DNA of 41,364 nucleotides, from IMG/VR virus record IMGVR_UViG_2563366951_000005, positions 1-41,364 of that record. One strand, written 5' to 3'. Below the pieces are notes generated by a model. That model made no database searches. It was not told the DNA's origin and saw nothing but the letters and a program-made list of their open reading frames with translations. The translations under genes and the position numbers were made by a program. Positions 1,559 through 35,619 of this stretch are shown here, piece after piece (position 1 is the first letter of the stretch; the number at the start of each line of letters is the position of its first letter). The stretch comes from a virus. Lineage: Duplodnaviria; Heunggongvirae; Uroviricota; Caudoviricetes.

Positions 1559-1860
1559 TATGCTTTCTCCATGAAAACGACCACTTCACACTTTGAGGCC
1601 GGATAATTACCCAGACCTACAGAAGATGCAGCGCTTACGGTTATTGTGCTCCCTGACGCGACAATGCGCCGCCCTACGCTGTTACCTCCTTCATCAAGTG
1701 AAAGAACAAAACCAACTTTCATTCCTGAGGGCACCGTAAAAGACCAGCTGCCGGAGGTTTGCCCGGCAGCCAGCTGTATTCGCCCAACGACGGAAACGGG
1801 TTTGATGCCATAGTTGTTGGGTTTTCCTGAAGCATCCCAGGTCTGTATTCCATAAGCCAT
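1558..1860 (-). CDS. hypothetical protein (100 aa) downstream of J
   Basis: ORF 2 nt after J stop, start overlapping next gene; no recognisable motif. Confidence 0.6.
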   Translation of the reverse strand: MAYGIQTWDASGKPNNYGIKPVSVVGRIQLAAGQTSGSWSFTVPSGMKVGFVLSLDEGGNSVGRRIVASGSTITVSAASSVGLGNYPASKCEVVVFMEKA

Positions 1861-1861
1861 T

Positions 1862-4800
1862 TCAGAATACTCCCGTTAATCGGCCAACCTGCACCCTAAG
1901 AACATTACTGCCATCTTTGACGCTGATCGTCTGATTTGTCAGTTTCATGGCTCCCTCACCAGCAGTCGAACCGTAGTTCTCAAACGTCCCCCCTTTATCA
2001 AGCTTCCAGCCAGCAGAACCAGCAACATAATTGTTCGACTGGATAAAATTACCAATCTTTGCGTTGCTGATAGTGCCGTCCTGGATGAAACTGGCCCGGA
2101 TGAATGTCTGCCCGTTCTGGATCACAAACGGCAAAGCCACGCTGTTACCTGCTGCCGTGGTGACGGCGAAGCGGTCAGCCAGGAAGATGACCTGTGACTG
2201 CATGCCGGACGGCGTATTCTCCACGCCGATCCCCATCCCTGCGGCGTAATACTGACCATTGCTGGAGACACCAACCTTGATGCTGTACATCGCCTTCAGA
2301 TCACCGTTAACGTTCGCTATGGCCTGAGCGTTAGTGGTAATGGCTGATGTGTGTCCGTTGACGGTCGCTGTGATCCCGTTTATCTGCGTGGCCGTGGCCT
2401 GCTGGTAATCGGAGAACGTCTGGTTCAGGCTGTTGATAGATGCCTTGTTGCCGTTCACGTTAGTCTGCAAACTCAGCAGCGAACGCGCCGTTGCCTCTTT
2501 CTCGTTGACGATCACCTCATCAATGCGGTCCAGCTGCGCGCTGTTACCGGCGACGGATGCAGACAGCGTTTTGCGCGCCGCCACCTGCGCCAGGTTGCCC
2601 TGAATAATCGCGATGGCAGAGTTCTTCACTCCTCCCGTCATACCGTCCACAGACACGCTGATGTTATCGATGCGCTGGCCCAGCGCGGTATCAGCCGTCG
2701 CCACTGTCTGCTCAAGCTTGCTCAGAGAAGAAGACACATCTCCGACCGTGCTCGACAGGTTTGTAACGCTGGTCTGAACCTTCCCGATATCCTGGGCGTT
2801 TTTGGCGATATCCTGCGCCTGTTGCGCCAGTTCGTCGTTGGCCTGTTTAATGTCGTCAGCCATACCAGCAATTTTTTCATTGCTGTCTACCGCGTTCTCG
2901 ATCAGGTCTTTGAACGTTTCCGACTCTTTCATATCCTCCAGGATTGCATCGGTGATATCGGATACATCGATGCTGGCCTGCCCGCGCACAAAGTCTGTAT
3001 ACCCTGATTCGTTTCCGCTGCGGTCCACCAGCTGCGCGCGGTACCAGAAAATTTGCCCAGCCTTTAGGCCCATCTGCTGATACTTGCGCTGCGGATAGGG
3101 TACGTCTGCCAGCAGCATCGCATCGTCTTCCGTCCCAGTCAGACTGTACTGAATTTCCGTCTTCAGCGTGTCGTCGGTGTTCGCCGGGAATCCCCAGCTC
3201 AGCTCGATACCGAATACCACATTATCGGAAGCGATGAAGCCGACCGGTTTCGGCGGATTGCCCACTTTACCCGTCAGCGTTTTCTCTTCCGAATATCCCC
3301 ACCCGGATGAAATTTCTGCGGCATTGATGGCGCGTACACGTACCAGATAGCGCCCGGCATAAATCCCAGGAACGTCGAATGACGTGGTGGAACTGCGCGG
3401 CACGTTAACCCAGTTCCCGTCGTTGCGGCGCCATTGCGCTTCATAGGCGATAGCATTCTGCGCCTGGTCCCAGCTCACGCGCATGGTTTCGACGCTGATA
3501 TTCTGCTGCACCACCGAAAACGAACTGATTACGATGTTGTCTGGCGGTGACTGATTGCCCGGCGGGATCACGCTCACCGGCCGCTGGTCAATAATGGCTC
3601 CGGTATCGATTCGGGCATATTTATCCGGATCGTGCCATGCACCGGTAATGGTGTAAGTGCCATCATCGTTATCAGTGACGCTCACAACACGGTACTGCTG
3701 TGCGTACAGTTCGTTTGACTCAACCACCCAGACAGCTTCGGCCTGCGGCGTCTCACTGTATGCGGTGGTGACTGTGACCGATTCCCCGTTAACCGCCTGA
3801 ATTGTCCTGCTCTGTGACGCTCCGGAGGGAAGGTTGAGGATAAGGCGATCACCTGCTGCCGCATCAGCTACACGGTCAAGTTTGATAACGCGACCATTAA
3901 CGGCGCTGATGCGTCCGCCCATAACCTTTCCGGAAAGCAGCTCGTCTGCCACAGCGATGATATAGCCAGGCTGCGGTATGTTTCCGTCCAGCCCGACATC
4001 GAACGAAACAACGCGATCCTTGTTGTTGGTGAGAATACCCCAGCGCCCCTTTCGGTTCGCTTCTGACTGTCTGGTACAACCAATGGCTGTCATTTCGAGC
4101 TGATTTGTGCCAAAGCGAGCAACGAGATCCTGCTCAAATACAGGCTCCATCGCATCCGCGTAGGCATTACCCGGATCGGACCAGGAAACCAGTGCTGTGG
4201 TATAGCGGGTTTTCGTGGTGCTGCCCGAATAGGTAAAGCGCCCATTAACCACGTTTGCACGCGTGTAGCTGTAATCCACATCGCGGGGCATATCCGCCAG
4301 CGCAACGATTTGATCGCCACCCCAGTAAGTCATGCCCCGGAATATCGCCGCAAAATCTCGTAACACGGTATAGGCGTCATTCCTCTCCTGCACATACACG
4401 TTGCAGGTATAGCGAGGCTCAGTGCCGCTACCGCCTTTACCATCAGGAACCGGCTGATCGCAATATTGCGCGACCTGGTAAAGCGTCCATTTATCAATAT
4501 TGGCCGCCGTCAGGCGATTGCCCAGCCCAAAGCGGTCGCTCACCACCAGATCGTAAAAAATCCAGGCTGGATTATCCGTCCACGCCCACTTAAACGCCCC
4601 CGTCCATGTGCCGCTATAGGTGCGGGTCTCCGGGTCATACGTATCCGGAACGCGGATTACACGCCCTCGCGGTTCGCAGGATATTTGCGGGATAGAGCCG
4701 TTAAACTGGCTTGAGTCGAATTCGATGTACAGCAGCGCGGTATTTGGATAACGCAGTTTGGCGTCAATGACCTCTGTATAGCTCTGCAGCGTCATCGTGT

Positions 4801-32702: not shown

Positions 32703-32960
32703 TTAAAGTTGACTATTGTTGTTAGCGGAAGGTATGCCGTCATTTTTGTTCGGATAAATATCAGGTCGTAATTGATGGGGAGTTACTACCCATCCGCCCC
32801 ATTGGCAGAGTTGAATAACTCTTTCAGAAGGTACTCGGTTCTTTGCAATCCAGTTCGCAACAGATTGAACTGATTGGAATTCAAACCGCCTTGATACCTC
32901 TGAAATCGACCCGATCGCCTTCACAGCTTTAGCTGTTACATTCTTGTGTTGAGATGACAT
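32703..32960 (-). CDS. cro: Cro-like repressor (YdaS/Cro family HTH)
   Basis: 85 aa from ATG 32960 with RBS AGGAGA; divergent from cI; HTH followed by RPD motif. Confidence 0.7.
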   Translation of the reverse strand: MSSQHKNVTAKAVKAIGSISEVSRRFEFQSVQSVANWIAKNRVPSERVIQLCQWGGWVVTPHQLRPDIYPNKNDGIPSANNNSQL

Positions 32961-32988
32961 GTGTTCTCCTATGACTAAGCCTGCATCA

Positions 32989-33017
32989 ATACTACTTATA
33001 GTAGCAATTATTAGCAA
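32989..33017 (-). promoter_or_regulatory. pR: -35 TTGCTA, 17-bp spacer containing operator palindrome CTACTATAAGTAG, -10 TAGTAT
   Basis: Read on minus strand; 22-nt leader to cro RBS. Confidence 0.6.
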
Positions 33018-33029
33018 CTTAAAATAGAA

Positions 33030-33749
33030 ATGACAACTATGCCTTGTGCGCTTAATCTTCTACTTATGGTGGAAAATGCTAAATACAAAGACTTTGCCGA
33101 AAGGCTAAACAGGTCTCTCCAAGAGCAATCTATTGGAGTTAAAGAATTGTCAGAGTTCAGTGGTGTCTCGTATGAGATGGCGCGGCGCTACACTCTTGGT
33201 ACTGCAAAGCCGAGAGATGAGAAGATGATTCGAATTGCAGAAAGACTTGCCGTCTCACCGGCTTATCTTGATTATGGTGTGCCTGTTAATGGTGGCGACG
33301 CGCCAGCCAAAGGCACGGTCAGAATAGAGCAATTGGATGTTCATGCTTCAGCCGGTTCCGGATATATAAACCAACCATTCCCTACAATAGTGAGCTCAAT
33401 AGAGATTCCAGAAGAGAGGATCTTCGAGTTGTTTGGTCGTAGAAGCCTTGATGGCATCGTCATGATAAATGTTGATGGCGATAGCATGATGCCCACGCTT
33501 TGCCCAAAGGACCTGCTTTTCATAGACAGCAAGGTTGAACAATTCAGCGGCGACGGCGTTTATGTGTTCAATTTTGAAGACAGTACGTTCGTTAAACGTT
33601 TGCAGAAGGTAAAAGGGCGCCGACTGGCAGTTCTTTCAGACAATGAACATTACCCGCCCTTCTTCATAGAGGAGCATGAAATGAATGAACTATACATATT
33701 CGGCAAGCTAATCAGATGCTTACCTCTAAAAATGATAGAGTTTGGCTAA
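33030..33749 (+). CDS. cI: CI repressor (HTH plus LexA/S24-type autocleavage domain)
   Basis: 239 aa; N-terminal HTH; C-terminal VDGDSMMPT with Ser and Lys dyad residues; start ambiguous (33030, 33039 or 33066), possibly leaderless. Confidence 0.9.
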   Translation: MTTMPCALNLLLMVENAKYKDFAERLNRSLQEQSIGVKELSEFSGVSYEMARRYTLGTAKPRDEKMIRIAERLAVSPAYLDYGVPVNGGDAPAKGTVRIEQLDVHASAGSGYINQPFPTIVSSIEIPEERIFELFGRRSLDGIVMINVDGDSMMPTLCPKDLLFIDSKVEQFSGDGVYVFNFEDSTFVKRLQKVKGRRLAVLSDNEHYPPFFIEEHEMNELYIFGKLIRCLPLKMIEFG

Positions 33750-33768
33750 TAATTAATTCATCAAGAAA

Positions 33769-33790
33769 CCGGCGAAAGCCGGTTTTTTTT
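33769..33790 (+). terminator. intrinsic terminator after cI (CCGGC-GAAA-GCCGG + T8)
   Basis: Perfect stem and 8 T read directly. Confidence 0.8.
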
Positions 33791-33854
33791 ACGCCTCCAA
33801 TTCCTCACCTCATAACACTACACTACTAAAAATTTCATTTTCTACTTTTTGTTG

Positions 33855-33884
33855 TTGCAATTATCTACTTAAAGTAGCTATAGT
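33855..33884 (+). promoter_or_regulatory. pL: -35 TTGCAA, 18-bp spacer containing operator palindrome CTACTTAAAGTAG, -10 TATAGT
   Basis: Read on plus strand upstream of the pL operon; same palindrome family as in pR. Confidence 0.6.
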
Positions 33885-33993
33885 CATTGCATCGAAAGCG
33901 AACAGGCAGGACGCCCACGAAGTAGCCGCCGGTGGCATATGAATAACCGGATGATTCGCTGACAGAAAACTTAGGTTGGGGGTAGAGGTTTAC

Positions 33994-34359
33994 ATGAATC
34001 ATTTATTCACATGCTCATTTTGCGGAGCAACCGAACTGGGAGCGATAAAGATCGTCGCAAAAGGTGGTAAGGACGAACCTGCCATCTGTTCGGAATGCGT
34101 AGTCACATGTGTAGAAAAAATGATCCTGACTAAAAAATCAGAGGCTGAAAAACCAACCTCTGATAACGAAATAATATCAGTCGATAAAAAACTATTTAAA
34201 GAGCTTCTTCAGCTTGTCCTCAACCTTCCTGATTTCGGAAGTAAGCTGGCTGCTGTTGACATTGATAGTAGCTCCACATCGACAAGTGAAACTTTTGTTC
34301 GACTTGAGCCAAGCGATTTTCTTCTTCGTCTTAGTGCCGCACTTAGGGCATGCGGGTAA
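33994..34359 (+). CDS. ClpX zinc-binding-domain-like C4 zinc-finger protein
   Basis: ATG 33994 with GAGG RBS; FTCSFCG...ICSECV matches the ClpX N-terminal zinc finger pattern (CSFCG...ICDEC); C-terminal half low complexity with rare codons. Confidence 0.55.
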   Translation: MNHLFTCSFCGATELGAIKIVAKGGKDEPAICSECVVTCVEKMILTKKSEAEKPTSDNEIISVDKKLFKELLQLVLNLPDFGSKLAAVDIDSSSTSTSETFVRLEPSDFLLRLSAALRACG

Positions 34360-34389
34360 CGTAATTTCCTGGTTATCAAAAGCGCCCAT
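34192..34389 (-). CDS. antisense zinc-ribbon ORF (CPKCG...CRCG), uncertain
   Basis: 65 aa from ATG 34389 with strong RBS AAGAGGG; overlaps the 3' half of the plus-strand ORF; only one of the two may be real in the overlap. Confidence 0.35.
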   Translation of the reverse strand: MGAFDNQEITLPACPKCGTKTKKKIAWLKSNKSFTCRCGATINVNSSQLTSEIRKVEDKLKKLFK

Positions 34390-34482
34390 AAACATCCCTC
34401 TTGGTTGTGTGAGAACACCAAGATACCACCGCGCCTGATGTGGTTAAAAGCAGGCTAAAGCAATAACAAGTAACTCCCTGTT

Positions 34483-34532
34483 CTGGCGGCCCGGTGTTTT
34501 CCCGTGTATTTCCGGTAACCGCCAGCCTTTTT
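34483..34532 (+). terminator. long GC-rich stem-loop (CTGGCGG...CCGCCAG) followed by T5
   Basis: Seen in sequence, in the 340-bp gap before rdgC. Confidence 0.4.
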
Positions 34533-34701
34533 CAGGGCACAACAGAAAAGGGCATCACCGGGCGACGGGCTCATAACCCAATCCACCCGGGCAAAAAGAA
34601 AGCGGTCTCTGCAAGCCGCCGACCAATGCAGGTGCCCTTCTCTGTTGTGTATGGAGAAACTAACTTTTTAGCGTCTGTGCAGATGCGCTGAGGAACCGAG
34701 A

Positions 34702-35619
34702 ATGAATAATCCGTTTTTCAAAAATATGTTGGTGTATCGCATTAGTCGCGATTTCACCATCAACCAGGAAGAGCTGGAACAGCAGCTTGAACTATTTCGC
34801 TTCACTCCATGCGGTAGCCAGGATATGGCAAAAACCGGTTGGGTATCACCACTTGGTCAGCTGTCAGATCGCTTGCATCACACTGTCAATAATCAAGTGT
34901 TGTTGGTTATTCGCCGGGAAGAAAAAATACTGCCATCTCCTGTCATTACTGAAGAACTGCGCAAGCGTGTGTCGCGTCTGGAATCCGATCAGGGGCGTCG
35001 CCTCAAAAAAACTGAGAAAGATTCGCTGCGTGATGAAGTGTTGCACTCCCTGCTTCCTCGGGCGTTCTCCAAAAACTCGACTGTTGGTTTGTGGATCAAC
35101 GTCACCGACGGTCTGATCATGGTTGATGCAGCCAGCGCTAAACGTGCCGAAGACTCACTGGCCCTGCTTCGTAAAACTCTCGGTTCTCTCCCGGTGGTAC
35201 CGCTGACTATGGAAACGCCGATCGAACTAACTATGACCGACTGGGTTCGTTCCGGTAGTGCGCCTGCTGGCTTTGGCCTGGGTGATGAAGCCGAACTGAA
35301 AGCTATTCTTGAAGATGGCGGTATTGGACGCTTTAAAAAACAGACTCTGGTCAGTGACGAAATTCATGTGCATCTGGAAGCTGGCAAAGTAGTTACAAAG
35401 CTGTCTATCGACTGGCAACAGCGCATTCAGTTCGTTCTTTGCGATGACGGCAGCATCAAACGCCTTAAGTTCTCTAATGAGATTACAGAACAAAACGACG
35501 ATATCGACCGTGAGGATGCGGCTCAGCGGTTCGACGCTGACTTTGTTCTGATGACCGGCGAGCTTATCTCTCTCATTAACGGATTAACAACCTCTCTCGG
35601 CGGCGAAGCCAAGCGATAA
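34702..35619 (+). CDS. rdgC: recombination-associated protein RdgC homolog
   Basis: 305 aa; long blocks ([59 protein letters not shown]) match E. coli RdgC as recalled. Confidence 0.9.

Follow-up and report, generated by a model that had tools for sequence, protein, structure and literature searches.

A predicted zinc-ribbon gene antisense to the first gene of a lambdoid pL-type operon, and the probable maintenance of an open frame across it

Convincing examples of genes nested antisense within other genes are rare in bacteria and phages, and they are contested. At the head of a lambdoid early operon, two open reading frames (ORFs) overlap on opposite strands, which raises the question of which of them is a gene and whether one stretch of DNA can be held readable in both directions. 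The pair lies in the window, by which we mean the whole stretch of 41,364 nucleotides analysed here (IMG/VR record IMGVR_UViG_2563366951_000005, a virus of the Caudoviricetes). The original prediction described a plus-strand ORF beginning with a ClpX-like zinc finger and a minus-strand ORF encoding a zinc ribbon, both of which are present at the positions and in the form described, and it offered two readings, an overlapping convergent gene pair or a mis-extended ORF. Our results speak for the former, as a genuine nested pair, but with the emphasis of that prediction reversed, since it is the minus-strand gene, here called Zr, that carries clear purifying selection, while the 3' half of the plus-strand ORF (plus ORF) is the antisense reading of Zr, kept open. 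Our best reading, which we consider probable, is that one DNA stretch is kept readable on both strands.

The locus and the first pL gene

The 951 bases surrounding the pair recur with 100% identity in the chromosome of E. coli Nissle 1917 and in ~36 further complete genomes of E. coli. Their surroundings in NZ_CP022686 form a lambdoid early region composed of a YmfL/cII-like gene, a cro-like regulator, a LexA/cI-type S24 repressor, the plus ORF and rdgC, with exonuclease, excisionase and integrase genes farther along from rdgC. This gene order around the plus ORF indicates that the plus strand of the window corresponds to the 'leftward' (pL) direction of lambda. The 'pr' primers of a paper on phage resistance in E. 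coli Nissle (PMC5987069, data set GSE109932) are absent from the window, which gives no ground for equating it with the 'prophage 3' of that paper. The features of the locus are as follows.

32703-33017, minus strand: cro-like gene (lambdoid context)
33030-33749, plus strand: S24 cI/LexA-like repressor gene (lambdoid context)
33855-33884, plus strand: predicted pL-like sigma-70 promoter, TTGCAA-18-TATAGT (consensus scan and sequence reading)
33893-33968, plus strand: structured leader RNA element of 76 nt between pL and the first gene (conservation, covariation)
33994-34359 including stop, plus strand: first pL gene, 121 aa, WP_016240143.1 (ORF reading, RefSeq)
33994-34128, plus strand: head of the first gene, a stand-alone ClpX-type C4 zinc-binding domain with Cys 7, 10, 32 and 35 (Pfam, hhalign)
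34132-34164, minus strand: predicted Zr intrinsic terminator with a 12-bp stem, a 4-nt loop and a U run (fold prediction)
34168-34356, plus strand: tail, the constant C-terminal part of the first gene, ~aa 59-121 (comparison of versions)
34192-34389 including stop, minus strand: Zr, gene for a 65-aa basic zinc-ribbon protein (conservation, dN/dS, family, AF2)
34396-34402, minus strand: putative Zr ribosome-binding site (RBS) AAGAGGG, 6 nt ahead of the ATG (sequence reading)
34420-34447, minus strand: predicted Zr promoter-like site (sequence reading)
34483-34532, plus strand: candidate tL1-like terminator between the cassette and rdgC, with a GC-rich interrupted stem followed by CCUUUUU
34702-35619: rdgC (lambdoid context)

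The pL-like promoter-like site sits 3' of the cI-like gene and of that gene's terminator, and sequence reading places an operator-like palindrome, CTACTTAAAGTAG (33865-33877), within its spacer. The plus ORF (ATG at 33994, TAA at 34357-34359, GAGG 7 nt ahead of the ATG) is the first ORF downstream of this promoter, in agreement with its predicted position as the first gene of a pL-type operon. At the far side of the cassette, the hairpin at 34483-34532 folds at -24.5 kcal/mol (z -2.1) and, together with its U run, may represent a tL1-like terminator.

The leader element between promoter and first gene occupies the same place after cI in ST64B, SfII, YeP1 and ZF40 and is present in 51 phage records. 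Compensatory changes occur in 5 of its 16 predicted pairs, and its covariance model, R1, matches directly 5' of several ORFs that encode heads. No Rfam family matched the element; an Rfam match to STnc370 at 33731-33793 (E 0.36) was taken as chance. A first ORF after pL that is preceded by a conserved structured leader RNA resembles the arrangement of lambda N or of HK022 Nun with the put RNA. In contrast to N and Nun, the product here is a 121-aa protein with no arginine-rich stretch along its length and no Pfam N-family match, and both results speak against a lambda N-type antiterminator. The identification of the leader as HK022 put RNA was also dropped: R1 had no match in HK022 (best 8.5 bits, E ~8), and it detected in the window no further copy of the kind that usually follows pR (putL, putR). 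The element may nevertheless act as an antiterminator of another kind.

The N-terminal 40 residues of the plus product proved to be a homologue of the ClpX zinc-binding domain, as the original prediction had proposed. Pfam zf-C4_ClpX (PF06689) matched aa 6-41 with an E-value of 7.6e-6 and 26.2 bits, 0.8 bit short of the 27-bit gathering cut-off yet significant. Further comparison by hhalign of a profile of the head and two relatives with E. coli ClpX residues 12-48, the ClpX sequence being entered by hand, gave a probability of 96.7% and an E-value of 3.5e-10 with 38% identity over 37 columns. Among PDB sequences, the plus ORF matched ClpX chains only. The four ligands C7, C10, C32 and C35 (CxxC...CxxC) are invariant in all relatives compared (P0013, P0014 and L064-L075), and the head matches the ClpX N-domain (PF06689; PDB 1OVX, 2DS5) beyond its ligands in flanking residues, namely CSFCG, K-[IL]-[IV]-A and ICxECV. 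Unlike the ClpX N-domain, the head has a loop between the Cys pairs that is longer by a 3-residue insertion, and it is fused to an unrelated tail. The 121-aa product also lacks an AAA+ module, as the NCBIfam ClpX equivalogs reached 20.7 and 14.8 bits, where cut-offs of 359 and 371 apply. The likeness is one of sequence, and the AF2 model of the head was of low confidence.

The original prediction further held that neither product carries a standard annotation, which does not stand for the plus ORF. It is already named 'ClpX C4-type zinc finger protein' in RefSeq/PGAP, and PHROGs families exist for it: phrog_20296 covers it over its full length and phrog_5259, a 70-aa family, covers aa 1-56 only. 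Head-only relatives of 61-63 aa sit at the same first-gene position after the leader element, and P0013 and P0014 have the zinc finger with other short tails.

Zr, a minus-strand zinc-ribbon gene

Zr reads from an ATG at 34389 to a TAG at 34194-34192 and encodes a CPKCG...CRCG motif followed by a C-terminal helix. Its overlap with the plus ORF is 168 nt long (34192-34359), and the two frames are in codon register, so that position 2 lies on position 2 and positions 1 and 3 are swapped. Versions of Zr were gathered from genome, viral and metagenome collections by searches with the Zr protein, blind to the plus frame; DNA of the protein relatives of the plus product was also retrieved for comparison. 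None of the 19 distinct DNA versions has a disrupted Zr: each starts at the same ATG, runs for exactly 65 codons and retains C14, C17, C36 and C38 without change. An alternative in-frame ATG at 34395 lies directly against the Zr RBS and is missing from other clades. The antisense ORF is thus conserved, and more widely so than the zinc finger; the RBS and the CPxCG...CxCG zinc ribbon that had been noted for it were both found, as AAGAGGG and CPKCG...CRCG, the latter motif being invariant in all homologues.

The substitution pattern in the overlap follows the minus frame. Pairwise Nei-Gojobori dN/dS values are 0.1-0.25 in the Zr frame vs 0.5-1.0 in the plus frame, and the variable columns are distributed over Zr codon positions 1, 2 and 3 as 20, 9 and 31. 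Moreover, a phmmer search with Zr over 1.84 billion representatives returned 331 clusters (defined at 50% identity) at E <= 1e-3. The members are mostly stand-alone proteins of 62-76 aa with the same motif pattern, encoded in both phage and chromosomal contexts. From the single sequence, AF2 modelled Zr with a pLDDT of 79.6 as a zinc ribbon with a helix after it (residues 46-64).

Neither curated families nor solved structures yielded a function for Zr. It resembles Lar of Rac, Com of Mu and YnfU of Qin in being a protein of ~60 aa with a C4-type zinc ribbon and a prophage origin, and weak profile matches to all three were obtained (E 0.004, 0.009 and 0.0035, respectively). However, its scores are far under the family cut-offs (17.7 vs 28.6 for Lar, 15.9 vs 22.9 for Com and 16.9 vs 36 for YnfU), as is typical of cross-hits between zinc ribbons, and no single zinc-ribbon family recurs across 20 members of the Zr family. 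Judged by these comparisons, the 331 clusters form a family without a name so far, which Zr defines.

The signals predicted around Zr would make it a complete unit. The RBS is kept in the form AAGA(A/G)GG in nearly all versions. The promoter-like site consists of a -35 element TTAACC (34447-34442), a 16-nt spacer and an extended -10 element TGGTATCTT (34428-34420); an inverted repeat CCAC-N10-GTGG (34443-34426; in its longer form CCACC-N9-GGTGG) overlaps this site and abuts the -10. The RBS, the 5' hairpin and TGGTATCTT ahead of the Zr ATG are almost invariant; TGGTATCTT and the CCACC..GGTGG repeat are kept across clades, and L035 and L037 have a different sequence in an identical layout. This site was not among the calls of the automatic promoter consensus scan. 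The terminator lies 28 nt past the Zr stop, within the linker of the plus ORF, and folds at -17.6 kcal/mol (z -6.7), a stability reached by 0 of 200 shuffles. Its stem shows compensatory changes in three versions (L005, L002 and L024), and a clear hairpin with a T-run is restricted to some clades. By prediction, Zr is therefore flanked by its own promoter and terminator.

Taken as a comparative case, Zr is a genuine gene, since its start, length, Cys residues, dN/dS, RBS, terminator and family are all conserved or consistent. The cassette occurs in 39-42 of 5426 complete E. coli genomes in RefSeq, in none of which Zr is annotated, and Zr is called in one GenBank entry only (P0001). A conserved gene is accordingly absent from the RefSeq annotation of the probiotic chassis E. 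coli Nissle 1917 and of every related prophage examined, because gene callers favour the longer ORF on the opposite strand.

The plus frame across Zr

The plus ORF is a head-plus-tail fusion, in which the tail is the in-register antisense translation of Zr plus ~8 codons past the Zr stop. Accordingly, the annotated 121-aa 'ClpX zinc finger protein' is a 45-aa domain joined to the antisense of Zr, which changes how this protein should be studied. Its protein relatives mostly match the C-terminal half only (DKxLFKQLLQLVLNLPDLGS...LEPSDFLLRLSAALRACG). At least seven unrelated N-terminal heads are joined in frame to the same tail, including the ClpX zinc finger, an AlpA-type HTH, Phage_P22_Y8K6 and a 143-aa coiled-coil-like family. 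If the junctions are independent, the probability that all are in frame by chance is (1/3)^6 or less. One class consists of little beyond the tail, at 92-98 aa, and has its own RBS (for example L010, with GAGGGGGG ahead of the ATG).

Each of the 22 distinct versions reached through Zr has an open plus frame. This frame runs on from an upstream ORF having an ATG and an RBS, and it stops at the Leu codon 11 of Zr, which is TTA in 16 and CTA in 3 (TAA and TAG on the plus strand). Across the overlap that this codon closes, 0 of ~150 Zr Leu/Ser codon instances is TTA, CTA or TCA; Zr codons 2 and 3, outside the overlap, do use TCA and TTA. Under a null model with selection on Zr only, the probability that no leaf has a plus stop is 0.003, or 0.02-0.03 with a codon-usage-aware model, and simulations expect ~5-9 of 19 leaves to carry one. 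The probability that the stop is kept at codon 11 is 0.02-0.2, and jointly with the open frame it is <= ~0.001. These are values from crude null models, built on an NJ tree of 198 nt with the allowed amino acids taken from the data and, in one calibration, running slightly too fast.

Other observations concern the reach of this dual reading. L040, a viral contig with a Zr-like gene of 43% identity, has an 83-aa in-register antisense ORF that ends at the equivalent Leu codon. Past the Zr stop, the plus frame keeps an [IV]-x-[IV]-D-K-x-L motif with third-position variation, and the plus-frame residue opposite Zr codon 54 is always Pro, although that codon is variously AGG, CGG or GGG. Chance leaves the in-register antisense frame open more often than any other frame, and it is also open in high-GC members of the Zr family, where it is uninformative. 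L056, a low-GC member, has 2 stops in that frame, so the dual reading is not family-wide. Scans for more distant Zr loci with P0015, P0016 and P0017 singly gave nothing usable.

Amino-acid-level tests of the tail gave a different picture from the tests of openness. The variable tail residues, T/A, D/N, I/V, R/G and S/G, represent plus-frame first-position transitions, which are third-position, synonymous changes in Zr. An OLGenie-style plus-frame dNN/dNS of 0.44 equals that of the Zr-only null (0.40-0.43) and therefore carries no weight, despite bootstrap significance. The plus-frame dSN/dSS is 0.57 vs 1.2-1.4 in the null (p 0.01-0.05), a difference resting on ~2 sites. Synonymous changes in Zr do not track their BLOSUM cost in the plus frame (rho 0.14, p 0.36), and plus-frame identity is not in excess of the null. 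With an alignment of 12 sequences, AF2 modelled the tail at a pLDDT of 40-63, and no family or structure matched it except the PHROG made of these same ORFs. The codon-position comparison suggested with the original prediction thus separated the two frames: it showed clear selection on Zr and detected no amino-acid-level constraint on the tail. In sum, the versions compared point to a significant maintenance of the plus frame at the ORF level only, in that it is apparently kept open, in frame with a head and with a fixed end. As the constraint falls on openness and not on the sequence of the tail, what matters would be either translation across the cassette or a loosely constrained tail.

A nested cassette, its alternatives and its relatives

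We propose that the pL operon probably begins with a cassette of two convergent genes, one nested in the other, across which translation opposite Zr is maintained. The minus strand would hold a complete small unit in a 'moron' layout, comprising an extended -10 promoter-like site, the RBS, the Zr gene and its intrinsic terminator. Zr would be expressed from the repressed prophage, and the small, basic protein may bind nucleic acids and act in regulation or exclusion. The opposite strand carries the first early gene, which would read through the Zr cassette in codon register, giving a product made of a variable head and a constant tail, the latter being the antisense translation of Zr. Selection would act strongly on the Zr protein and also on the plus frame, which is to stay open, in frame with its head and closed by one fixed end codon. 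Upon loss of the repressor, transcription from pL would run head-on through Zr and the head-tail protein would be made, and this transcription may silence Zr by collision and antisense pairing. The zinc-finger head would be an independent early module that may act on partners of ClpX. The pair can be tested by mutations that are silent on one strand.

Several other accounts of the same data were weighed. That the RefSeq annotation is complete, with the plus ORF as the sole gene and the minus ORF as a chance antisense ORF, is very improbable: PGAP and other callers do almost never call the minus ORF, the single GenBank entry P0001 apart, but this account is contradicted already by the codon-position pattern and dN/dS, which point to the minus frame, by the conserved start, length, Cys ligands, RBS and terminator of Zr, and by 331 clusters of stand-alone homologues that are called as genes elsewhere. 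It is less improbable, though in our view still rather unlikely, that Zr is the only selected coding sequence and that the plus product is a zinc-finger protein of ~50-60 aa with a meaningless tail, its frame being open merely since the in-register antisense of a Lys/Glu-rich gene seldom has stops. The higher dN/dS of the plus frame agrees with such a tail, as do a dNN/dNS no different from the Zr-only null, the lack of a BLOSUM correlation, the low AF2 confidence for the tail and the existence of tail-free zinc-finger proteins (61-63 aa, or with other tails). What this account leaves unexplained is a frame open in 22 of 22 versions where ~5-9 of 19 simulated leaves bear a stop, a stop fixed at Leu-11 of Zr despite TTA/CTA exchange, and at least seven unrelated heads that are all in frame and none of which has its own stop (<= (1/3)^6 if independent). 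The [IV]-x-[IV]-D-K-x-L motif conserved past the Zr stop with third-position variation, and the same architecture in L040 at 43% identity, also argue against it. The opposite extreme is true dual coding, in which the tail is a functional domain of the proteins of first pL genes, overprinted on Zr or the reverse, and the two products possibly interact. All the evidence of the open frame and of the in-frame fusions fits true dual coding, together with the near tail-only class that has its own RBS (92-98 aa, L010), the invariant Pro opposite the changing Zr codon 54 and the low dSN/dSS (0.57 vs 1.2-1.4). We give it only hesitant credence, however, as the amino-acid-level tests are null or marginal and the tail has no confident fold and matches nothing except the PHROG that holds these same ORFs.

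A further alternative concerns the head. In E. coli, the isolated ClpX zinc-binding domain forms a dimer, to which SspB and substrates including lambda O bind. A free zinc-binding head might likewise dimerise or compete with the ClpX N-domain and shield early phage proteins from ClpXP. The homology of the head to the ClpX domain, non-ligand residues included, and its early-gene place right after pL and the leader element in many prophages are consistent with such a decoy. Nevertheless, our literature search found no paper on a phage-encoded mimic of the ClpX N-domain, the loop between the Cys pairs carries a 3-residue insertion, AF2 confidence for the head is low, and the head is exchangeable for an AlpA-type HTH or others on the same tail. 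Because several other heads can take the place of the zinc finger, the decoy is weakened as an account of the whole locus, and we regard it as a tentative possibility. More speculative, and in our opinion doubtful, is a truly bidirectional coding element, in which ~165 bp would be read in codon register on both strands, one strand giving a zinc-ribbon protein made in the prophage state and the other the constant C-terminal domain of the protein made first in early lytic growth. Its transcripts or products would be mutually antagonistic, and it would serve as a mobile lysis-lysogeny toggle beside the immunity region that takes various heads.

The nested cassette, as preferred here, can be set beside two known arrangements. 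Morons, a concept of Hendrix and colleagues, are reportedly independent promoter-gene-terminator units that lie between phage genes and are expressed from the prophage. The HK022 record carries the note 'moron gene product'. Zr is similar to morons in that it has its own promoter-like site, RBS and strong intrinsic terminator, all of them predicted, and lies inside an otherwise repressed operon beside the immunity region, where other phages have other convergent small genes. Unlike morons, the Zr unit is located within the coding sequence of the first pL gene, the frame of which stays open, and its expression in the prophage state is deduced from this layout. The second comparison is with the embedded antisense pairs reported under the title 'Three Novel Antisense Overlapping Genes in E. 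coli O157:H7 EDL933' (PMC9927249). As in those pairs, an ORF is fully or largely contained in a gene of the opposite strand and has expression signals of its own, which are predicted in the present case. In contrast to the O157:H7 pairs, it is the short unannotated Zr that belongs to an old, broad family under purifying selection, with the annotated long ORF riding on it. The present pair is also kept together in several genera as a mobile cassette whose heads are interchangeable. Its support is comparative: it spans genera and includes at least seven independent fusions, all in frame, as well as a stop codon at a fixed place.

The distribution of the cassette also bears on the moron-like reading. 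Of 48 loci, 34 have an S24 repressor gene that converges with the cassette and lies upstream of it within 1.5 kb, and these repressors belong to several immunity types (35 to 100% identity to five queries). Where the cassette is missing, zinc-finger heads (61-63 aa, or 112 aa when joined to a different tail) are the first gene ~25 nt past the leader element, and other convergent minus-strand ORFs come next; in SfII and YeP1, small convergent genes are annotated at the same spot. The site adjoining the immunity region therefore appears to be a hot spot for convergent cargo genes. Such a cargo-collecting spot fits the moron-like reading of Zr, and it bears on prophage gene expression under pL repression. 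One class of the cassette is located elsewhere, in the lysis/terminase region.

A structured RNA in the pL leader and a terminator-like hairpin

The pL leader of the prophage contains a structured RNA element, and a terminator-like hairpin lies between the cassette, i.e. the antisense zinc-ribbon gene Zr nested in the first pL gene, and rdgC.

Window 33893-33968 (+): structured RNA element of 76 nt in the pL leader, consisting of an outer stem and two hairpins
Window 34483-34532 (+): GC-rich interrupted hairpin followed by CCUUUUU (-24.5 kcal/mol, z -2.1)

Comparison of five phages revealed covariation in four of the five pairs of the second hairpin of the leader RNA, which is located 115-185 nt 3' of the cI stop codon in ST64B, SfII, YeP1 and ZF40. 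The element was found in 51 phage records, among them SfV, SPN3UB, mEp237 and Aeromonas and Providencia phages. No Rfam family corresponded to it, HK022 gave no match and the window contains no second copy. The element is a candidate for a cis-acting antiterminator or another leader RNA in phages without an N gene. The hairpin at 34483-34532 may be a tL1-like terminator, in which case the downstream pL genes would need antitermination. A section of the surrounding region 34440-34700 (query positions 99-153) is also present in ~300 E. coli genomes, where it is mostly unannotated.

The first pL gene, Zr and other convergent genes

The first pL gene encodes a ClpX-type zinc-finger head and a tail. 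In Shimwellia and a viral contig (L002 and L028), the first pL protein has 220-230 aa and shares with the window both the tail and 'CVE.II...KKSE.EK', which forms the final helix of that head, while its N-terminus is unrelated. This comparison suggests a recombination junction within the zinc-finger coding sequence. Directly 3' of the first pL gene, other prophages carry differing small convergent ORFs:

L064 2268-2519 (-): small ORF
L070 2302-2718 (-): ORF of 138 aa, with a 38-nt overlap with the end of a zinc-finger protein of 112 aa
SfII (L060) 1833-2024 (-): small ORF
YeP1 (L061) 1859-2092 (-): small ORF

The position appears to be a hot spot of cargo genes in antisense orientation. The promoter-like site of Zr has an element of its own:

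Window 34426-34443 (-): inverted repeat CCAC(C)-N9/10-(G)GTGG, adjoining the extended -10

An equivalent is present at all cassette loci, and the layout is kept even where the sequence differs, as in the divergent loci L035 and L037 (CCACTA-N3-TAGTGG, then TAAATA). The repeat could serve as an operator or form an RNA hairpin.

Distant 75-aa members of the Zr family occur on four metagenome contigs (L052-L055) in a conserved chromosomal, non-phage setting, indicating that the family is not phage-specific. There, the gene is flanked by an isoamylase gene on one side and an AI-2E transporter gene on the other, the latter separated from Zr by a 90-aa ORF in L052-L054 and following it immediately in L055.

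Integrity and type of the prophage

The prophage may be partly decayed, because in RefSeq its DUF968 gene is frameshifted and its DUF550 gene truncated (L001 1-740; NZ_CP022686 457185-458181). The 'pr' repressor gene primers given in PMC5987069 for 'prophage 3' of E. coli Nissle had no match in the window, so this paper deals with another locus.

Window 32703-33017 (-): cro-position protein, 104 aa as ORF, matching Pfam YdaS_toxin (E 8e-9)

RefSeq gives a shorter version of this protein, an 85-aa 'transcriptional regulator'. Together with this match, the YmfL/Phage_CP76 type of the cII-position protein indicates an early-right region of e14/Rac type and not of lambda type.
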